From the NCBI GenBank assembly GCA_041615815.1, contig JBFJCP010000008.1, positions 32,001-96,000 of the forward strand: DNA of 64,000 nucleotides, given 5' to 3'. A program made the translations under genes and the position numbers. The notes under the pieces are model-generated. The model was not told where the DNA came from. It did not search any database and saw only the letters and a program-made list of their open reading frames with translations. This document shows, in pieces, positions 10,900-16,907 of the stretch (position 1 is the stretch's first letter; every line of letters starts with the position of its first letter). This stretch comes from Gemmatimonadales bacterium (GTDB lineage Bacteria > Gemmatimonadota > Gemmatimonadetes > Gemmatimonadales > GWC2-71-9).

Positions 10900-11325
10900 T
10901 CAGGGCCACCGTTTCAGCCGGCCGAGCCGGGATGTCGTGAGCGATTCGGCACTGGCTCCCCGCCTGAGCACGAGCGTGGTATTGGCCGCCCCCCAACCGA
11001 GCCCCGTGGGACCCACGCGAATGACCGCTCGAGACGCCTCGAGCGTGACACCATGGCGCCCGGGTCCCGGAGCGGCGACGACCAGGGAATCGCGTTCGTC
11101 GATGACCGCGCGCAGGGAATCCTCGGCGAACACGAGACGCACACGTACACCGTGAAAAACCGCGGACAGGCGTGCTCGGTTGTAGAACGACGCCACCTCC
11201 AACGCGGCCCGATTGGTCGCACGGACGTCACGCGAAGACCCGATGTGCGGGCTCCAGATCACGAGCACCAGTCCGGCGATCGCGATGGCCAGCAAGGTTT
11301 CTACGACGGTTGTCCCCGCTTGCAT
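10900..11325 (-). CDS. GspH/FimT-like prepilin (type IV pilin-like)
   Basis: N-terminal MQAG|TTVVE plus hydrophobic helix; C-terminal SRLGRLKRW. Confidence 0.75.
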   Translation of the reverse strand: MQAGTTVVETLLAIAIAGLVLVIWSPHIGSSRDVRATNRAALEVASFYNRARLSAVFHGVRVRLVFAEDSLRAVIDERDSLVVAAPGPGRHGVTLEASRAVIRVGPTGLGWGAANTTLVLRRGASAESLTTSRLGRLKRWP

Positions 11326-11538: not shown

Positions 11539-11554
11539 AGGTATGCAACTTGCT
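11539..11554 (+). promoter_or_regulatory. Sigma54-type -24/-12 promoter candidate upstream of the TPR gene
   Basis: AGGTATGCAACTTGCT (GG-N10-GC). Confidence 0.5.
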
Positions 11555-11757
11555 CCCTCGGAGATGTTTACACGGATTCGTCGGCTCCGCCCGGGCGGTC
11601 TCGGGTATGCGCCGAAGTCGGGTCCGGAGCCCGACGCCGCCGTTGTGAGACGGCTGGGACAGGCAAAGTGATCGTCACCCTTGCCCGACCCCCGCAGCGG
11701 CGCCCATACTTGCTGGGGCCAGCATATGTTGAGCATCGATCGAAGAAAGCCGCTCTC

Positions 11758-13044
11758 GTGACCACCAACGGTTCACGCCGTCGGCTCACCACTCCAAGCA
11801 CGTTCCACGAAGCGTTCCTGACCCGGGCCGCGAAGGCACAGGATCAACGCTCCAAGGCACGTGCCATGGGTGGTTTTCTCGCCATGCGGTTGGTGGACCA
11901 TTTCGCCGATGGACGGATCGTCGAGACGAGTCGATCCGCGCGGGAATACCAGGTCAAAGCCACATCGGAATTCGTGGCGCAGCTGTTCCCCAGGACCGTC
12001 GAAGTGAACCATCTCTCGGAGATCGTGCGGGTGGCTGCCGGAGCCGCACGGACGGGCACGGTCCGGGTCATGTGGCCGCCCCTGCTGGCATTTGCCTACT
12101 GGCTCGAGCAGGAGGTTCGGTACGACGAGGCGTTGGACGTACTGACCACCGCGCTGCGGTTGCAGGATGGGGGGAAGGGGGAGGAGGAGGTGGCCGCGAG
12201 CCTGCAGCGAGCACGGGTGCTGCGCCGCGCCGGCCGGTTCGACGAAGCGTGCGAGGGATATGCGGCCGCCGGGGATCTCGCCGTGCAGCTGGCGGATCGA
12301 CGCTCGGAGCTGTTGAGCAGAATCGGGCGTGCGATCGTGCTGCAGAAGACGGGCAACTTGCCTGAATCCGAGCGGCTCCTCCGTCGGGTCCTGGAGGACG
12401 CCCGGGCCTTGGGCGACCGCGACGCCGAGGCGCGCGCGTGTCACGATCTGGCCATCGCGATGGCGCTGCGGGAGCGCTTACCGGAGGCGGTACCGCTCGC
12501 GTTCCGAGCGTTTGAACTGTACGACCGCCCAACTGATCGAGCGCGGGCGCTGCATGACACCGGCGCCTTTCTCAAAGAGCTGGGGCACTATAGCGCAGCG
12601 AGCGATGCGTTCCTGGAGGTGCTTGCGGGGGCGCCGCCGACCGAGATGCTCCTGCTGGTCGAGCTCGAGCTGCTCGAGGTGAGCGCGCTGATCGGTGACC
12701 GTCTGTCGTTTGAGCGCTGGCGTCGGGAGTTGCAGGGAGATCATGACCTGATGGCACCCGAGGTCCGCGTGGACTTCGGCATCAAGCTCGCAATGGGATT
12801 GGCGTCGTTTGAGCGGGAGCCGGAGGCCGAGAGAGCGTTACGGCGCGCGATCGGGCTGGCCGAGCGTCATGGATTGAACGAACATGTGTTCCGGGCAGAG
12901 CGCCATCTCCTGGAGCTGCAGGAGCGGCGCGCGGCGCGGCGCGAGGCCGTCAATCCGCCGACCCCCGCGCCCGAAGTGCACCGCACGATCGAAGCGGTGC
13001 AGGCCCTCCGGGCGGAGCGGGAGGCAGCGGCGACGACGCCTTGA
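11758..13044 (+). CDS. Tetratricopeptide-repeat protein (cytoplasmic, no obvious HTH); start approximate
   Basis: Tandem TPR-like helices (RARVLRRAGRFDEA, RAIVLQKTGNLPESE, HDLAIAM, HDTGAFLKELGHYSAA); the upstream part of the long ORF overlaps other genes and is not credible. Confidence 0.82.
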   Translation: MTTNGSRRRLTTPSTFHEAFLTRAAKAQDQRSKARAMGGFLAMRLVDHFADGRIVETSRSAREYQVKATSEFVAQLFPRTVEVNHLSEIVRVAAGAARTGTVRVMWPPLLAFAYWLEQEVRYDEALDVLTTALRLQDGGKGEEEVAASLQRARVLRRAGRFDEACEGYAAAGDLAVQLADRRSELLSRIGRAIVLQKTGNLPESERLLRRVLEDARALGDRDAEARACHDLAIAMALRERLPEAVPLAFRAFELYDRPTDRARALHDTGAFLKELGHYSAASDAFLEVLAGAPPTEMLLLVELELLEVSALIGDRLSFERWRRELQGDHDLMAPEVRVDFGIKLAMGLASFEREPEAERALRRAIGLAERHGLNEHVFRAERHLLELQERRAARREAVNPPTPAPEVHRTIEAVQALRAEREAAATTP

Positions 13045-13194
13045 TTACGTGTCCGAGTTTGCGTAACCCGCGTTGAAGCAGCTCGTGGTCTCGTCGCCGC
13101 AGTCTGGCGGGGCGACGGGGTTCGCACAGGCGGCGGCGCTGAGCGCGACCGACGCCAAGAGCGCGAACGCGTAGAGTCGTATGCGACGCGACAT
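13045..13194 (-). CDS. Unannotated 49-aa secreted/lipoprotein-like peptide MSRRIRLYAFALLASVALSAAACANPVAPPDCGDETTSCFNAGYANSDT
   Basis: AGGAGG RBS before ATG; basic n-region, hydrophobic h-region, AAA-C lipobox-like site; stop abuts the TPR stop. Confidence 0.8.
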   Translation of the reverse strand: MSRRIRLYAFALLASVALSAAACANPVAPPDCGDETTSCFNAGYANSDT

Positions 13195-13260
13195 GGTGCT
13201 CCTCCTGAGCGCATAAGGAGTGGATGTGCTGCTGGGGTTGCGAGATGGCGCGAAACCGCC

Positions 13261-13332
13261 ATTCTAAAGCTCAGCGGGAGTCCTGGAGGTTTTTAGTCCC
13301 TTTTTGGGACTTTACGTGTCGTTTTTGGGACA
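13261..13332. promoter_or_regulatory. Divergent control region: tandem TTTTTGGGAC repeats 21 bp apart and a minus-strand -10 TAGAAT
   Basis: AGTCCC-TTTTT-GGGACT (13295-13311) and GTGTCGTTTTTGGGACA (13316-13332); ATTCTA at 13261-13266. Confidence 0.55.
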
Positions 13333-13335
13333 TTC

Positions 13336-14136
13336 ATGAACGTCCTCTCAGCGGTACCCGACGATTTCGCACGGCGTTTGCAGCGGGCGGCCGGACAGCG
13401 GTTCACGTTCCGGTCCACCCGCGGGTGGTCGGAGACCATCGACGCGATTCGGCAGGAGCCGCTCGAGCTTGCGGTGGTGGACCCGGGACTCGAGGGCATT
13501 CCCCGGGCACATGAGATCGAGCGGATTCGGGTACTCTTCCCGTCGCTCCCGCTCATGTTGTACACCAAGCTGTCGCCCCGCATGGTGCCGGTGCTCCTGC
13601 AACTAGGCCGAGCCGGGATCCGTAACGTCGTGGTGGAAGGCCATGACGATCACCCCGATCGCCTGCGGCAGCTTCTCATCGAGGAGGCCGCTGGTTCCGT
13701 CTCGCGGCGGTTGGTGGCGCAGCTGGATGACGTGCTTGGGGATTGTCCCGGCGAGCTTCGTTGGGCGATCGAGACGGCGGTTCGGGAACCGGCTACGCTC
13801 CACACGGTGGGTGATCTGGCGCGGCGGGCCCGCATGGACCGGCGCACCTGTGTGCGGTGGTTCACCAAGGCGCAACTACCGCCCCCAAGCGTTATGTTGA
13901 TGGTCTTTCGGGTAGTCTATGCGCACCGTCTGTTGCTGGATCCGGGCTACACCGTGGAGGATGTGGCGACCAAGTTGGGGTACGCGAAGACTCGGTCGTT
14001 TGCGCAGAACGTGAAAGAGGTGTTCGGCATGACGCCTGGAGAGCTGCGGGTATCCCTGGCGCCGGAGGACGCGTTGAGCGTCGTGCGGGATCGGTATTTC
14101 CGGCAGGCTACCCTGTCTCTCTTGACGGCGTCATGA
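13336..14136 (+). CDS. AraC-family transcriptional regulator with a degenerate receiver-like N-terminal domain
   Basis: C-terminal double HTH (TVGDLARR...TVEDVATKLGY...F...KEVFGMTPGELR); N-terminal LAVVDP...FPSLPLMLYT. Confidence 0.85.
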   Translation: MNVLSAVPDDFARRLQRAAGQRFTFRSTRGWSETIDAIRQEPLELAVVDPGLEGIPRAHEIERIRVLFPSLPLMLYTKLSPRMVPVLLQLGRAGIRNVVVEGHDDHPDRLRQLLIEEAAGSVSRRLVAQLDDVLGDCPGELRWAIETAVREPATLHTVGDLARRARMDRRTCVRWFTKAQLPPPSVMLMVFRVVYAHRLLLDPGYTVEDVATKLGYAKTRSFAQNVKEVFGMTPGELRVSLAPEDALSVVRDRYFRQATLSLLTAS

Positions 14137-14531
14137 AACAAGGGCTCATGGTGTTGGTGGTGGACGATGACCCCAGCGTCCGCCGCGTGTTGGAACGGGC
14201 GCTCCAGCTGCGGGGCCACACGCCGCTGGTGGCGGCAACCGGTGACGCGGCCTTCGAGTTCCTCCGGCGCCATGAGATAGACCTGGTCCTCATGGACCTG
14301 CGCATGCCCAGCATGTCCGGGCAGACGCTGTATCATGTGATCGCGAGCCAATGGCCGAGGCTGGCAAGTCGGGTCATCGTTATGAGTGGCGATCCCGACG
14401 CTCGGGACCACGAGGAGTGGCTGTCGCTGAACCAACTACCGGTCATCAACAAGCCGTTCGATCTGCCTGAGTTGTATGCCATGATCGATCGGCTGATGTC
14501 TGACGAACGCCGTCGAGCCAACGGAGGCTGA
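14133..14531 (+). CDS. Single-domain response regulator (CheY-like)
   Basis: VLVVDDD, DLRMP, MSG, NKPF; ATGA overlap with the AraC gene. Confidence 0.9.
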   Translation: MKQGLMVLVVDDDPSVRRVLERALQLRGHTPLVAATGDAAFEFLRRHEIDLVLMDLRMPSMSGQTLYHVIASQWPRLASRVIVMSGDPDARDHEEWLSLNQLPVINKPFDLPELYAMIDRLMSDERRRANGG

Positions 14532-14532
14532 G

Positions 14533-15252
14533 TTGACCCCACCGGGTGGCGAACACGATCCCCTGACCGTGCTGCGGGAGTACCGGCAGCTGGCCCCTTG
14601 GAACTTGCGGGACCTGGCGACGCTCGCCGGGGCCATTCTCGATGCGTCCAGCGTGCGGCCCATCAATGCCGCGGCCAGCGTCCATCCCAATGAACGGACG
14701 ATTCGATTCTATGTGACCCGTGGTCTCGTCACCCCGCCCGAGGGCCGGGGCACGGCGGCGATCTACTCCTACCGCCATCTCCTCCAGGTACTGAGCATCA
14801 AGCTCCGGCAGATGGAGGGAGCTACCCTGGCGGCGATCGCGTCAGAGCTCGAAGCGCTTTCCGGCGATGTGCTGGAACGCCGGGTCGCGGGGGCGCTGGG
14901 TCCCAGTCTCCCCGCGCCCGATCATCTCGCACTCGGCGACGCCCAGGCCGCACCTCGCGGCCGAGCGGGCCGACTCTATCGGACATCTTCACCCGATTCG
15001 TATGGTCCGCCGGCCGCCGCCGAGCCCGCGGAGACACCCCGACAGCCCTCCACCTGGTATCGCGTACCCATCTCGCCGGGTGTCGAGCTTCATCTCACGG
15101 CGGATCACCCGCTGGCGCGCGCCCGCGAGCGCGGCACGGAGCTCGCCGACGCCGTCCGGGTCGCCCTCTCGCGCGTACTCGCCCGAGGTCGCACGGTCCC
15201 CGAAAAGTCGGCGGCGGCCGATCGCGCCGACGCCGTTCGCGCTCGCCAGTAA
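14533..15252 (+). CDS. MerR-family HTH regulator
   Basis: RTIRFYVTRGLVTPP.GRG..A.Y. Confidence 0.8.
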   Translation: MTPPGGEHDPLTVLREYRQLAPWNLRDLATLAGAILDASSVRPINAAASVHPNERTIRFYVTRGLVTPPEGRGTAAIYSYRHLLQVLSIKLRQMEGATLAAIASELEALSGDVLERRVAGALGPSLPAPDHLALGDAQAAPRGRAGRLYRTSSPDSYGPPAAAEPAETPRQPSTWYRVPISPGVELHLTADHPLARARERGTELADAVRVALSRVLARGRTVPEKSAAADRADAVRARQ

Positions 15253-15303: not shown

Positions 15304-15891
15304 ATGTCCTGGATTTTCCTCGTGCTGGTCGTGGTGGTGCTGCTGTGGGCGATCTACGCGTACAACATGTTAATCAATCTGAAGGGGCAGACGCTCAACG
15401 CGTGGAAGCAGATCGACGTACAGCTCAAGCGACGCCATGATCTGATTCCCAATCTCGTGGAGGCGGTGCGCGGGGCAATGGAGTTCGAGCGGGAGACCCT
15501 CGAGGCCGTGATTCAGGCTCGGAACCAAGCGGTGAAGATCCAGGCCTCGGCGGCCCCGACGGGCGGCGTGCAGCAGCTGGCGCAAGCGGAGGCTGCGCTG
15601 AGCAGCGCCCTGGGTCGCCTCAACGTCGTCGTGGAGCGGTACCCCGAACTCAAAGCCACCGCCAACGTGGGTCAGTTGCAGGAAGAACTCACGTCCACGG
15701 AGAATCGCGTGGCGTTCGCGCGGCAATTGTACAACGACACGGCCACGACGTACAACGTGAAGCAACACCAGATTCCATGGAATCTGGTCGCCGGGTTCGC
15801 AAAGGCGGAGCCGGTAGAGCTGTGGGAGATCGTCGACGAGAGCGAGCGCGAGGTCCCACAGGTCGATCTTTCCCTGAAACCGAAGCAGTGA
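15304..15891 (+). CDS. lemA: LemA family protein
   Basis: AYN...W.QIDVQLKRRHDLIPNLV, ERYPELKA, ENRVAFARQLYN. Confidence 0.95.
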   Translation: MSWIFLVLVVVVLLWAIYAYNMLINLKGQTLNAWKQIDVQLKRRHDLIPNLVEAVRGAMEFERETLEAVIQARNQAVKIQASAAPTGGVQQLAQAEAALSSALGRLNVVVERYPELKATANVGQLQEELTSTENRVAFARQLYNDTATTYNVKQHQIPWNLVAGFAKAEPVELWEIVDESEREVPQVDLSLKPKQ

Positions 15892-16907
15892 CCGACGCGA
15901 ACCTCTTTGCGCAACAAGCCGCCAATCGCCGCCGTTCGACGATCCTTGTAACGCTCTTTCTCCTCTTCTTCGCCTGGGTCGGGTTCGGCGGCGATCTCGC
16001 GTTCAATCTGGCCACGGCGGACGCGCCGCCGGATGCCTATCACCACACCGTACCATGGTTCGGCATCGGGGCGACGCTCCTGGGTGGCGCCCTGGCATGG
16101 GTGAGCTGGAAAACCGGCCCCAAGCAGGTCCTCTGGGCCACTGGGGCGTGGCAGCTCCTCGAAGCGGACACCGACGCCACGAAGCGTCTCGTGAACATCG
16201 TCGAGGAGATGGCAATCGCTTCCGGGTTGCCCGCACCCAAGATCTGGATCCTCGCAGACAAAGACCCCAACGCGTTTGCCACCGGCACCGACGAGCACCA
16301 TGCCCATGTGGCCGTCACTGAGGGCCTCTTGGAGCTCCTGAACCGGGACGAACTGCAGGCGGTCGTGGCGCACGAAATGGCCCACATCCGAAACCACGAT
16401 GTCAAGCTGATGACGTTGCTCGCGGCGTTAGTGGGCGTCATCCTCCTGATCTCCGACGGCGCGTGGCGATTCGTCTGGTTCGGACAGGGTCGCGCCCCCA
16501 GGCCGCGCGGAGGTGGGAAGAAGGGGGGCGGCCTGGCCCCCGTCGTCTTCGTGTTGTGGCTCCTGACGCTCCTGCTTGCGCCGATCATCTCCCGCCTGCT
16601 CGCGCTCGCCGTGAGCCGCAAACGGGAGTTTCTCGCCGACGCCACTGGAGCTCAATTCACCCGCAACCCGGGGGCCCTGGCATCCGCGCTACGACGGATT
16701 GAGGAGGCGGCGGGGCCCACGAAGTCGATCAAGCGCGGCGCCGCCCATCTGTGCATCGCGGACCCGTTGGGACGGCGCCTCACCCACAAGCAAGGCCTGG
16801 TGGCCAATCTCTTTGCCACCCACCCCCCCATGCCGCTCCGCATCGCCCGCCTCAAGGCGATGGCCTACCAATTCGACAAAACGGGAGTGATCCCGGAGGA
16901 GGTCTGA
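15888..16907 (+). CDS. htpX: HtpX-like M48 zinc metalloprotease
   Basis: PNAFATG, AHEMAH (HEXXH), SRKREFLAD, FATHPP. Confidence 0.92.
   Translation: MTDANLFAQQAANRRRSTILVTLFLLFFAWVGFGGDLAFNLATADAPPDAYHHTVPWFGIGATLLGGALAWVSWKTGPKQVLWATGAWQLLEADTDATKRLVNIVEEMAIASGLPAPKIWILADKDPNAFATGTDEHHAHVAVTEGLLELLNRDELQAVVAHEMAHIRNHDVKLMTLLAALVGVILLISDGAWRFVWFGQGRAPRPRGGGKKGGGLAPVVFVLWLLTLLLAPIISRLLALAVSRKREFLADATGAQFTRNPGALASALRRIEEAAGPTKSIKRGAAHLCIADPLGRRLTHKQGLVANLFATHPPMPLRIARLKAMAYQFDKTGVIPEEV

Follow-up and report, generated by a model that had tools for sequence, protein, structure and literature searches.

A conserved TPR protein–lipopeptide–AraC cassette in Gemmatimonadota and its candidate role as a peptide-controlled switch

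A 64,000-nucleotide stretch from a Gemmatimonadales bacterium (assembly GCA_041615815.1, contig JBFJCP010000008.1, positions 32,001 to 96,000; this whole stretch is the window, and positions are counted within it) encodes a cassette composed of a tetratricopeptide repeat (TPR) protein, a small pre-lipopeptide, an AraC-family regulator, and a single-domain receiver. The cassette is a real, conserved, and undescribed variant of a known circuit type: the TPR and lipopeptide genes remain paired across homologous loci, the C-terminus of the peptide co-varies with the TPR groove into which it is modelled, and the peptide, operator, AraC, and receiver have been lost together in natural deletions. No description of a TPR–lipopeptide–AraC cassette was found in the literature covered, subscription journals lying mostly outside that coverage. 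We give rather better than even chances to a peptide-controlled partner switch that resembles Rap–Phr in its working.

Organization of the cassette

The genes of the locus, and a promoter-like element upstream of the first of them, are as follows:
11758-13044, + strand: TPR gene (428 aa, GTG start; TPR_12 match, E 1e-16)
13045-13194, - strand: pre-lipopeptide gene (49 aa, ATG start), convergent with the TPR gene, both stop codons abutting
13336-14136, + strand: AraC-family regulator gene (HTH_18 match), divergent from the peptide gene
14133-14531, + strand: single-domain receiver gene, with an ATGA overlap with the end of the AraC gene
14533-15252, + strand: MerR-type helix-turn-helix (HTH) gene, directly 3' of the receiver gene
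11681-11710, + strand: TPR-gene promoter-like element (TTGCCC-18 bp-CATACT), housekeeping in appearance

The positions and orientations of four open reading frames (ORFs; TPR, 49-aa peptide, AraC, and receiver) stand as an initial annotation of this DNA had given them. The start that it assigned to the module, 11539, instead falls in the upstream non-coding region, the TPR promoter lying at 11681-11710; a TTGCC...CATACT/GATACT pattern is seen upstream of several relatives' TPR genes (24 relatives inspected by eye, with no formal count). New here are the Cys32-Cys39 pair of the peptide, a repeat of 21-bp period (13294-13332), and the coupled MerR-like gene (from 14533). An 842-aa open frame that contains the TPR sequence was rejected as a real protein; relatives' proteins start at about 410-440 aa. 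A contig of run X1, from which this DNA may derive, covers the whole stretch with 0 differences, and contig X6, from another study, covers 12879-13185 with 2 differences, of which the one inside the peptide gene (13081) falls by our reading in the third position of the Ser38 codon and is silent.

Distribution and conserved linkage

At E<=1e-10, TPR matches are present in 147 of 401 sampled Gemmatimonadota genomes (f1 92/165, f2 46/94, and f7 3/70 by family; none in f3, f6, and f9-f12). Three genomes flagged as unpublished, G057, G157, and G181, are included in this tally and in the f1 co-occurrence counts below (the TPR/AraC count excludes G157), and no loci were drawn from these three. As initially proposed, the lineage is diderm and non-Firmicute: the named relatives belong to Gemmatimonadales/Gemmatimonadota of the FCB group, outside Firmicutes/Bacillota, and Gemmatimonadota are diderm. 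Plasmid and phage collections yielded 0 TPR matches, viral contigs being outside that scan. For the TPR protein, the ESM Atlas returned only Gemmatimonadota-dominated clusters and one Bacteroidota-dominated cluster at 0.94; searched with the peptide, it gave no usable match.

The 94 non-duplicate loci examined comprise the top matches and 60 hand-picked from 150 listed matches. A convergent small lipobox ORF is present at 88 of the 91 loci with the TPR end in view, and the gap between the TPR and peptide genes is -36 to 145 bp in these 88 (search window -60 to 250 bp). In this genome, the same filter accepts 11 of 2,474 long ORFs that look coding, the present locus included, and because of this difference in frequency the adjacency of TPR and peptide genes is not attributable to chance. 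The three loci without a peptide are L024, where the peptide frame is present with no canonical start nearby; L070, with a truncated TPR and the peptide-AraC-receiver block deleted; and L093, an orphan TPR. A small signal-peptide ORF adjoining TPR homologues, set as a check by the initial annotation, is also found at 22 of 26 distant or paralogous full-length loci, the misses being L112, L115, L126, and L130 (the 26 derive from 30 fetched, with 2 duplicates and 3 partial matches set aside and L131 and L133 counted once).

Where enough DNA is available, the AraC gene is next in 85 of 89 loci, the receiver gene is present in 76 of 89, and the MerR gene in 32 of 61. TPR proteins that have diverged to about 25% identity still have the peptide gene linked to theirs, and the linkage has also survived duplication and relocation. 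TPR-family matches number 7 and 8 in two f8 genomes, and diverged paralogues reach up to 7-8 per genome. At loci chosen for AraC-less genomes, a peptide is present at 0/5.

Some members of the TPR family differ in architecture. At five family f7 loci (L108, L121, L122, L166, and L159), the TPR frames are about 610 aa long and include an additional N-terminal region without a Pfam match, and the peptides next to these frames contain 2-4 exact core repeats and 0 extra cysteines. Protein P0111 is a 644-aa member with an N-terminal sigma domain of the extracytoplasmic function (ECF) type (regions 2 and 4); it may be a genuine fusion, which would suggest other outputs, or else a read-through. In L157, too, an ECF sigma gene is located 3' of AraC. 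Other long TPR frames (670, 670, and 815 aa; G000:C7:127584-131756 and C26:22807-23763) match the family profile weakly.

The lipopeptide

The peptide gene and its translation start include the following elements:
13126-13137, - strand: lipobox codons A20-A21-A22-C23
13078-13101, - strand: Cys32-Cys39 loop
13048-13071, - strand: predicted active core, residues 42-49 (AGYANSDT), from its predicted groove placement
13199-13206, - strand: Shine-Dalgarno sequence AGGAGGAG

Pooled dN/dS for the peptide gene is 0.21 (pS 0.44, pN 0.126; 19 disjoint hand-picked close pairs, 21 computed), indicating purifying selection, and the 49-aa ORF is therefore protein-coding. Its strong ribosome-binding site had been recognized initially (AGGAGGAG, 4 nt before the ATG), and a Shine-Dalgarno-like word is located 5' of 83/88 peptides. 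The pre-lipopeptide, 49 aa here and 39-88 aa in 88 relatives, consists of a basic N-region, a hydrophobic stretch, the lipobox AAAC (Cys23), a linker, a Cys32-x6-Cys39 loop, and a linear C-terminal core. A putative export signal is present, as the initial annotation had claimed, but it is of the lipoprotein (signal peptidase II, SPII) type with Cys23, rather than a plain Sec/SPI signal peptide. The lipobox Cys is found in 88/88 peptides by construction, since the filter demanded Cys; the residue at -1 is Ala in 86/88 and Gly in 2/88, with the pattern A/T/S/L/V-x-A-C. LspA is encoded in the genome (1 match). After the lipobox, 86/88 peptides have a T/S-G/A-P-like motif that is common to many ordinary lipoproteins of this genome.

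Extra cysteines after the lipobox number two in 66/88 peptides and zero in 22/88, and never one or three, a rule of sequence that speaks for a disulfide arising after export. The tail, rich in Gly, Ser, Asn, and Thr, is a variable core with the pattern x-[GN]-S-[GND]-T/N. In alignment, the Cys32-Cys39 loop falls on the first of the two identical cores of L003 and L004, and on this basis is probably a degenerate first copy of a duplicated core. Tandem core repeats occur in 5/88 near peptides (6 copies in L013), as well as in distant loci, L108, L117, L121, and L122 among them. For phr genes, intragenic core duplications, identical or diverged, are described in PMC5199041 and PMC9765709, and the drifted duplicated core here has the pattern reported for phr genes in the former (PMC5199041).

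A ribosomally synthesized and post-translationally modified peptide, raised by a weak HaaT-like TPR match, was considered and rejected: the match lies far below the cut-off, and no modifying enzyme recurs among the annotated neighbors (99/175 neighboring ORFs annotated, 18 loci).

Many lipoproteins of this genome (G000) have a C-x-D/E-x-T-G/A-P-like motif right after the lipobox, which may be a lineage-specific sorting or surface-export signal. A 69-aa lipobox protein at G000:C5:37798-38007 (+) is cysteine-rich, with five NPC-containing repeats (ANPCA-like) and a strong Shine-Dalgarno sequence.

The TPR protein and its predicted groove

The TPR protein is modelled as all-helical (pLDDT 93.8), with four helices before the repeats, an extra C-terminal helix at 405-426, and no HTH, in agreement with the initial annotation. 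No export signal is evident either: a hydrophobic N-terminus occurs in 1 of 129 full-length TPR relatives, so the protein is cytoplasmic. TPR_12 is matched by 69 of 77 family members, and a polar patch is conserved in the N-terminal helices (R44 75/77, D47 72/77, Q65 58/77).

By comparison of models, the fold is a generic TPR superhelix, for which LGN/Pins score best (LGN Z 25.9, rmsd 4.0, 295 aligned; SprE 22.2; MalT 20.5; Foldseek similar). Comparison with Rap, NprR, and AimR had been set as a check, and Rap proteins do match well (RapI Z 21.8, rmsd 5.1, 311 aligned; pLS20 Rap Z 21.6; RapH Z 21.4), with weaker matches to NprR (Z 18.5) and PlcR (Z 15.8); but LGN, SprE, and MalT match alike, and TPR repeats cannot settle ancestry.

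A complex model of TPR residues 10-428 with peptide residues 20-49, likewise set as a check, places the C-terminal tail in the groove with a score of 0.69, vs. 0.02 for the best of 3 controls; the mark applied is reached by 116/157 solved pairs and 2/215 mismatched pairs. The runs share at least 51% of their contacts, with a partner pLDDT of 43-44. Only peptide residues 42-49 are confidently placed, contacting 25 groove residues centered on H229, D230, R263, and D267. The candidate groove residues are these four and R153; R263 is kept in 72/77 and D267 in 71/77 family members. The model supports binding of the C-terminal core to the concave TPR groove.

Co-variation and natural deletions

With overall TPR distance removed, groove distance tracks core distance (r 0.24), and 0/2,000 entropy-matched column sets reach this value; the signal region shows no co-variation with the groove (r -0.09, 1,454/2,000). 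Groove-core co-variation holds in five variants (1-2/1,000 each): under hydropathy matching, on shortening the core, for f1 by itself, and after removal of either genus g4 or the eight rows of the complex job. A co-varying C-terminus, as the initial annotation had suggested looking for, is thus found in the pooled set, and is not significant in f2 alone.

In L169-L173 and L070, the TPR gene abuts the MerR gene, with the peptide, operator, AraC, and receiver gone together. Block deletion corresponds to 3 events on a MerR tree (40 rows), at least 2 of which are forced by well-supported branches; the MerR-type gene, a conserved family neighbor, survives deletion of the cassette. The full-length leftover TPRs (5/5) have substitutions at both R263 and D267, and they keep conserved polar groove residues at 8/25 positions, vs. 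85/145 polar positions elsewhere; equally distant intact f2 proteins keep 69/110 groove vs. 311/638 other polar positions. That full-length leftover TPR genes (L169-L173) persist with a decayed groove suggests either slow decay or a second function. Among 165 f1 genomes, TPR and AraC were both found in 84 and neither in 68, while 8 gave only TPR and 5 only AraC, on differing thresholds and in assemblies that are incomplete. In L109 and L110, the AraC gene has moved upstream of the TPR gene and is still adjacent to it.

The AraC regulator, its candidate operator, and the receiver

Two elements lie between the divergent peptide and AraC genes:
13294-13332, + strand: direct repeat of 21-bp period, TTTTTGGGAC at 13301 and 13322, a candidate AraC operator that abuts the peptide -35 and the AraC start
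13267-13295, - strand: putative peptide-gene promoter, from alignment, with -35-like TAAAAA (13290-13295), a 17-bp spacer, and -10-like GAGCTT (13267-13272)

The receiver-like AraC N-domain of the initial annotation is borne out by structure comparison as a receiver fold, but it is a pseudo-receiver. Asp49 is present in 64/66 and Thr/Ser77 in 61/66; there is no acidic pair after beta1, which ends A-A-V-P, and no Lys after beta5, and without acidic pocket and Lys the protein is not a canonical REC-AraC response regulator. The missing residues make it probable that AraC is controlled by a partner rather than by a kinase. The lone receiver has the canonical residues D11-D13, D55, and K107, and is an accessory part of the cassette.

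Across 84 intergenic regions, period 21 gives a mean best self-match of 10.1/12, vs. 7.1 or less at every other period from 8 to 35. AraC/XylS proteins typically bind tandem sites with a 21-bp spacing, and on sequence grounds the repeat is probably the AraC site. With the operator matrix, 83/84 regions score above all 420 shuffles, a partly circular result, the matrix being trained on the same regions; it misses most distant loci. Operator half-sites are slightly enriched upstream of TPR genes (9/92 vs. 2/92 shuffled). A regulon search of this genome with the matrix found no second strong site, and direct output of the circuit may be limited to the peptide gene and the AraC-receiver-MerR operon. 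In the rearranged L109 and L110, only low-scoring repeat copies precede both AraC and the peptide gene, a hint only.

A sigma-70 scan returned 0 promoters, and the promoter elements were derived from alignment. In 82 loci, AAnnT columns keep a fixed distance from the repeat (-27 to -23), and the consensus is clearest in family f2 (TTTAcg-17-TAncTT, read toward the peptide). No conserved -35 is seen in the opposite (AraC) direction, and a plus-strand reading of the -10 element is disfavored, though possible for family f1. Because the operator abuts the -35, the layout of an activated promoter, AraC is likely to exert positive feedback on the peptide gene.

This genome also encodes, at G000:C8:105937-106899 and C7:107128-108027, two AraC homologs that are pseudo-receiver-like and more distant; neither was seen to have a TPR or peptide gene next to it.

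Proposed mechanism

In the peptide-controlled partner switch that we favor, the pre-lipopeptide would be exported by Sec, lipidated, and cleaved at Cys23, and, in peptides with two cysteines, disulfide-looped outside the cytoplasm, as the lipobox and the 0-or-2 cysteine rule suggest. A protease would free the C-terminal core (approximately AGYANSDT), and this may re-enter the cytoplasm, from neighbors or from the cell's own periplasm, via an Opp/Dpp-type permease; the genome has 5 matches to family-5 solute-binding proteins, and the transporters are not linked to the cassette. Modelling predicts that the core binds the concave TPR groove, with which the co-variation agrees. Judging from co-occurrence and co-loss, the TPR protein would hold the pseudo-receiver AraC, most likely in an inactive state, and release it upon peptide binding; an anti-activator role for TPR is somewhat preferred to a co-activator one. 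AraC would bind the 21-bp-period repeat, the site and geometry of which are seen, and activate the peptide promoter, and it probably controls its own operon, together with the lone receiver and the MerR-like gene. Within this explanation, cell-to-cell signaling appears the likelier use, and a self-sensing loop of export, clipping, and re-import is a lesser but substantial prospect. Possible, although on balance doubtful, is the full version of the former: independently evolved diderm peptide communication, in which a lipid-anchored, often looped precursor on the envelope or on vesicles is passed between cells, clipped, and re-imported, and the TPR anti-activator frees the pseudo-receiver AraC, with lineage- and paralogue-specific 'languages'.

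Several observations weigh against the partner switch. A lipid anchor and disulfide loop are awkward for a diffusible pheromone, leaving self-sensing or export monitoring possible, and no dedicated protease or importer recurs among the annotated neighbors (99/175 ORFs, 18 loci). Full-length TPRs persist without peptide or AraC (L169-L173, L093); L033, L043, and L111 keep TPR, peptide, repeat, and receiver without an adjacent AraC, and G360 is without a close AraC orthologue (best E 7e-23). This genome has one strong operator copy (46.8, next 15.2). In the complex model, the peptide's own fold is of low confidence, and the passing score may come partly from likeness to solved TPR-peptide complexes, which are common among structures. 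The co-variation set is 63/77 pairs, 14 having been dropped (no anchorable core or no peptide), and in f2 alone the result is not significant (78/1,000, n=13); related genomes are not independent, and the control columns share phylogeny but include buried ones.

Alternative explanations

The lipid-anchored precursor would be explained, with no crossing of two membranes, if the TPR protein were an intracellular export monitor that binds the tail of unexported pre-lipoprotein, such that blocked export leads to build-up and flips AraC, with no release or re-import. Efficient export through Sec, Lgt, and Lsp would then take the ligand away, in a partner switch comparable to ExsA-ExsD-ExsC-ExsE. 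Modelled binding, co-variation, co-loss, and a single operator per genome all fit such a monitor; yet the strict 0-or-2 cysteine rule implies selection on the oxidized, exported form, and the monitor has no need for the cysteine pair, found in 66/88 tails and usually around the core. Released signals would also better account for the tandem core repeats and for the diverged paralogues, which number up to 7-8 per genome, and we regard export monitoring as unlikely. Alternatively, the lipopeptide might be the end product (surface tag, kin marker, or toxin), turned on by AraC, with TPR a chaperone or immunity factor and AraC not regulated by TPR. Consistent with this, the peptide gene is the one driven by the genome's sole strong operator, the post-Cys sequence is like that of many ordinary lipoproteins here, the tails are hypervariable, and L033, L043, and L111 combine TPR, peptide, and operator without an adjacent AraC. 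Against it, TPR is cytoplasmic and the mature peptide would be outside, the Gly/Ser/Asn/Thr-rich tails are without toxin-like features, the non-phosphorylatable receiver fold of the AraC N-domain needs another input, and TPR and AraC are still adjacent after rearrangement (L109, L110); an end product is less likely again than an export monitor.

The TPR protein might instead act on the lone receiver, by Rap/Spo0F-like phosphatase activity or sequestration, in place of or besides AraC, which would only drive the peptide gene. The receiver is canonical and present at 76/89 loci, in L033, L043, and L111 it is the sole regulator that remains with TPR and peptide, and the polar patch of the TPR N-terminal helices (R44, D47, Q65) is conserved; but AraC is the more constant partner (85/89), and at many distant loci the examined DNA shows AraC and no receiver, making the receiver an improbable target. 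Mere synteny, of a small lipoprotein beside a generic TPR protein that does not bind it, would accord with the generic TPR folds (best matches LGN/Pins) and with the existence of orphan TPRs. Linkage maintained between TPR proteins of about 25% identity and after genes were duplicated or relocated, co-variation and decay specific to the groove, and a complex score far above the controls leave it very little weight.

Comparison with known systems and significance

With Rap-Phr, the HTH-less branch of RRNPP/RRNPPA found in Bacillus and its plasmids and phages, the cassette shares a cytoplasmic, HTH-less TPR protein of about 430 aa with N-terminal helices, an adjacent small propeptide with a putative Sec signal and a C-terminal core, core duplications, multiple paralogues, and probable action on a receiver-fold protein. 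In the Rap subfamily, an N-terminal three-helix bundle binds or dephosphorylates a response regulator; the TPR protein here has four helices with conserved polar residues in front of its repeats. It differs in that there is no sequence evidence of homology, LGN/Pins outscoring Rap (Z 25.9); in its FCB-group diderm host; in a precursor that is always lipobox-type, with a putative disulfide loop in 66/88; and in a dedicated adjacent pseudo-receiver AraC with its own operator. Rap-Phr genes are in tandem order, whereas the peptide gene here is convergent with the receptor gene. RRNPP receptors have a conserved groove Asn, in contrast to the conserved polar groove residues Arg263, Asp267, and Asp230 here. 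The NprR-NprX, PlcR-PapR, and AimR-AimP systems likewise combine a TPR receptor with an adjacent secreted peptide and repeated cores, and PlcR-PapR exerts positive feedback on the peptide gene.

An AraC activator with tandem sites overlapping the -35, and partner switching with a small exported protein, is known from ExsA-ExsD-ExsC-ExsE of Pseudomonas; the present cassette differs from this cascade in having no type III secretion link, and a TPR protein and Sec lipoprotein replace ExsD/C/E. The enterococcal pheromones cCF10 and cAD1 derive from the signal sequence of a large lipoprotein and have a cytoplasmic receptor. The lipoprotein origin of the signal is shared, but here it is the C-terminal tail of a tiny lipoprotein that is variable, repeated, and receptor-matched.

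Two surveys allow a closer comparison. NprR, PlcR, and AimR carry their own HTH (PMC9765709), whereas DNA binding here is delegated to a separate AraC protein, and a position 'immediately downstream' is given for the peptide gene (PMC9765709). The RRNPP signature has five criteria, among them a propeptide of 10-100 aa, its Sec export and maturation by peptidases, a receptor of 250-500 aa with TPRs, and a gene gap of -60 to 400 bp (PMC10075063); size, TPRs, and adjacency here fall within these ranges (49-aa propeptide, 428-aa TPR receptor, gaps of -36 to 145 bp), and the signal with lipobox corresponds to the 'relaxed' (Sec/SPII) rather than the 'strict' (Sec/SPI) level of export (PMC10075063). 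SPII cleavage is predicted for 211/2,734 RRNPPA propeptides in a survey that covered Firmicutes (PMC9765709), and a lipobox is therefore not unprecedented in propeptides. The RRNPP-like circuit of the initial annotation fits in size, TPR content, and adjacency, and the searches gave no support for homology: no RRNPP-specific Pfam or NCBIfam model matched across 77 TPR members, no RRNPP protein is among the PDB sequence matches listed (60 of 84), and the TPR fold is generic.

Cytoplasmic TPR-peptide signaling is described as a Gram-positive trait (PMC9765709, PMC10075063). If the full version, peptide communication between diderm cells, is true, the cassette would be the first RRNPP-like cytoplasmic peptide sensing outside Gram-positives, with a precursor that is tethered rather than freely secreted. 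Gemmatimonadota are an abundant and barely studied phylum, and if the function is signaling, they would have a communication system with dozens of predicted ligand-receptor pairs and a defined operator and promoter. The question raised is by what route a peptide signal that starts as a lipid-anchored precursor would pass two membranes; the three-part circuit can be rebuilt in Escherichia coli. Even as an export monitor, the cassette would represent a new kind of lipoprotein-pathway sensor.

Neighboring genes

A GspH/pilin-like gene (10900-11325, - strand) is divergent from the TPR gene and keeps this position in most f1 loci and not in f2; it is a possible target or mere synteny. On the other side, lemA and an M48 (HtpX-like) protease gene are located 3' of the MerR-like gene (15304-16907, + strand). 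As lemA is also found 3' of MerR in the deletion loci, the lemA and M48 genes are probably outside the cassette.

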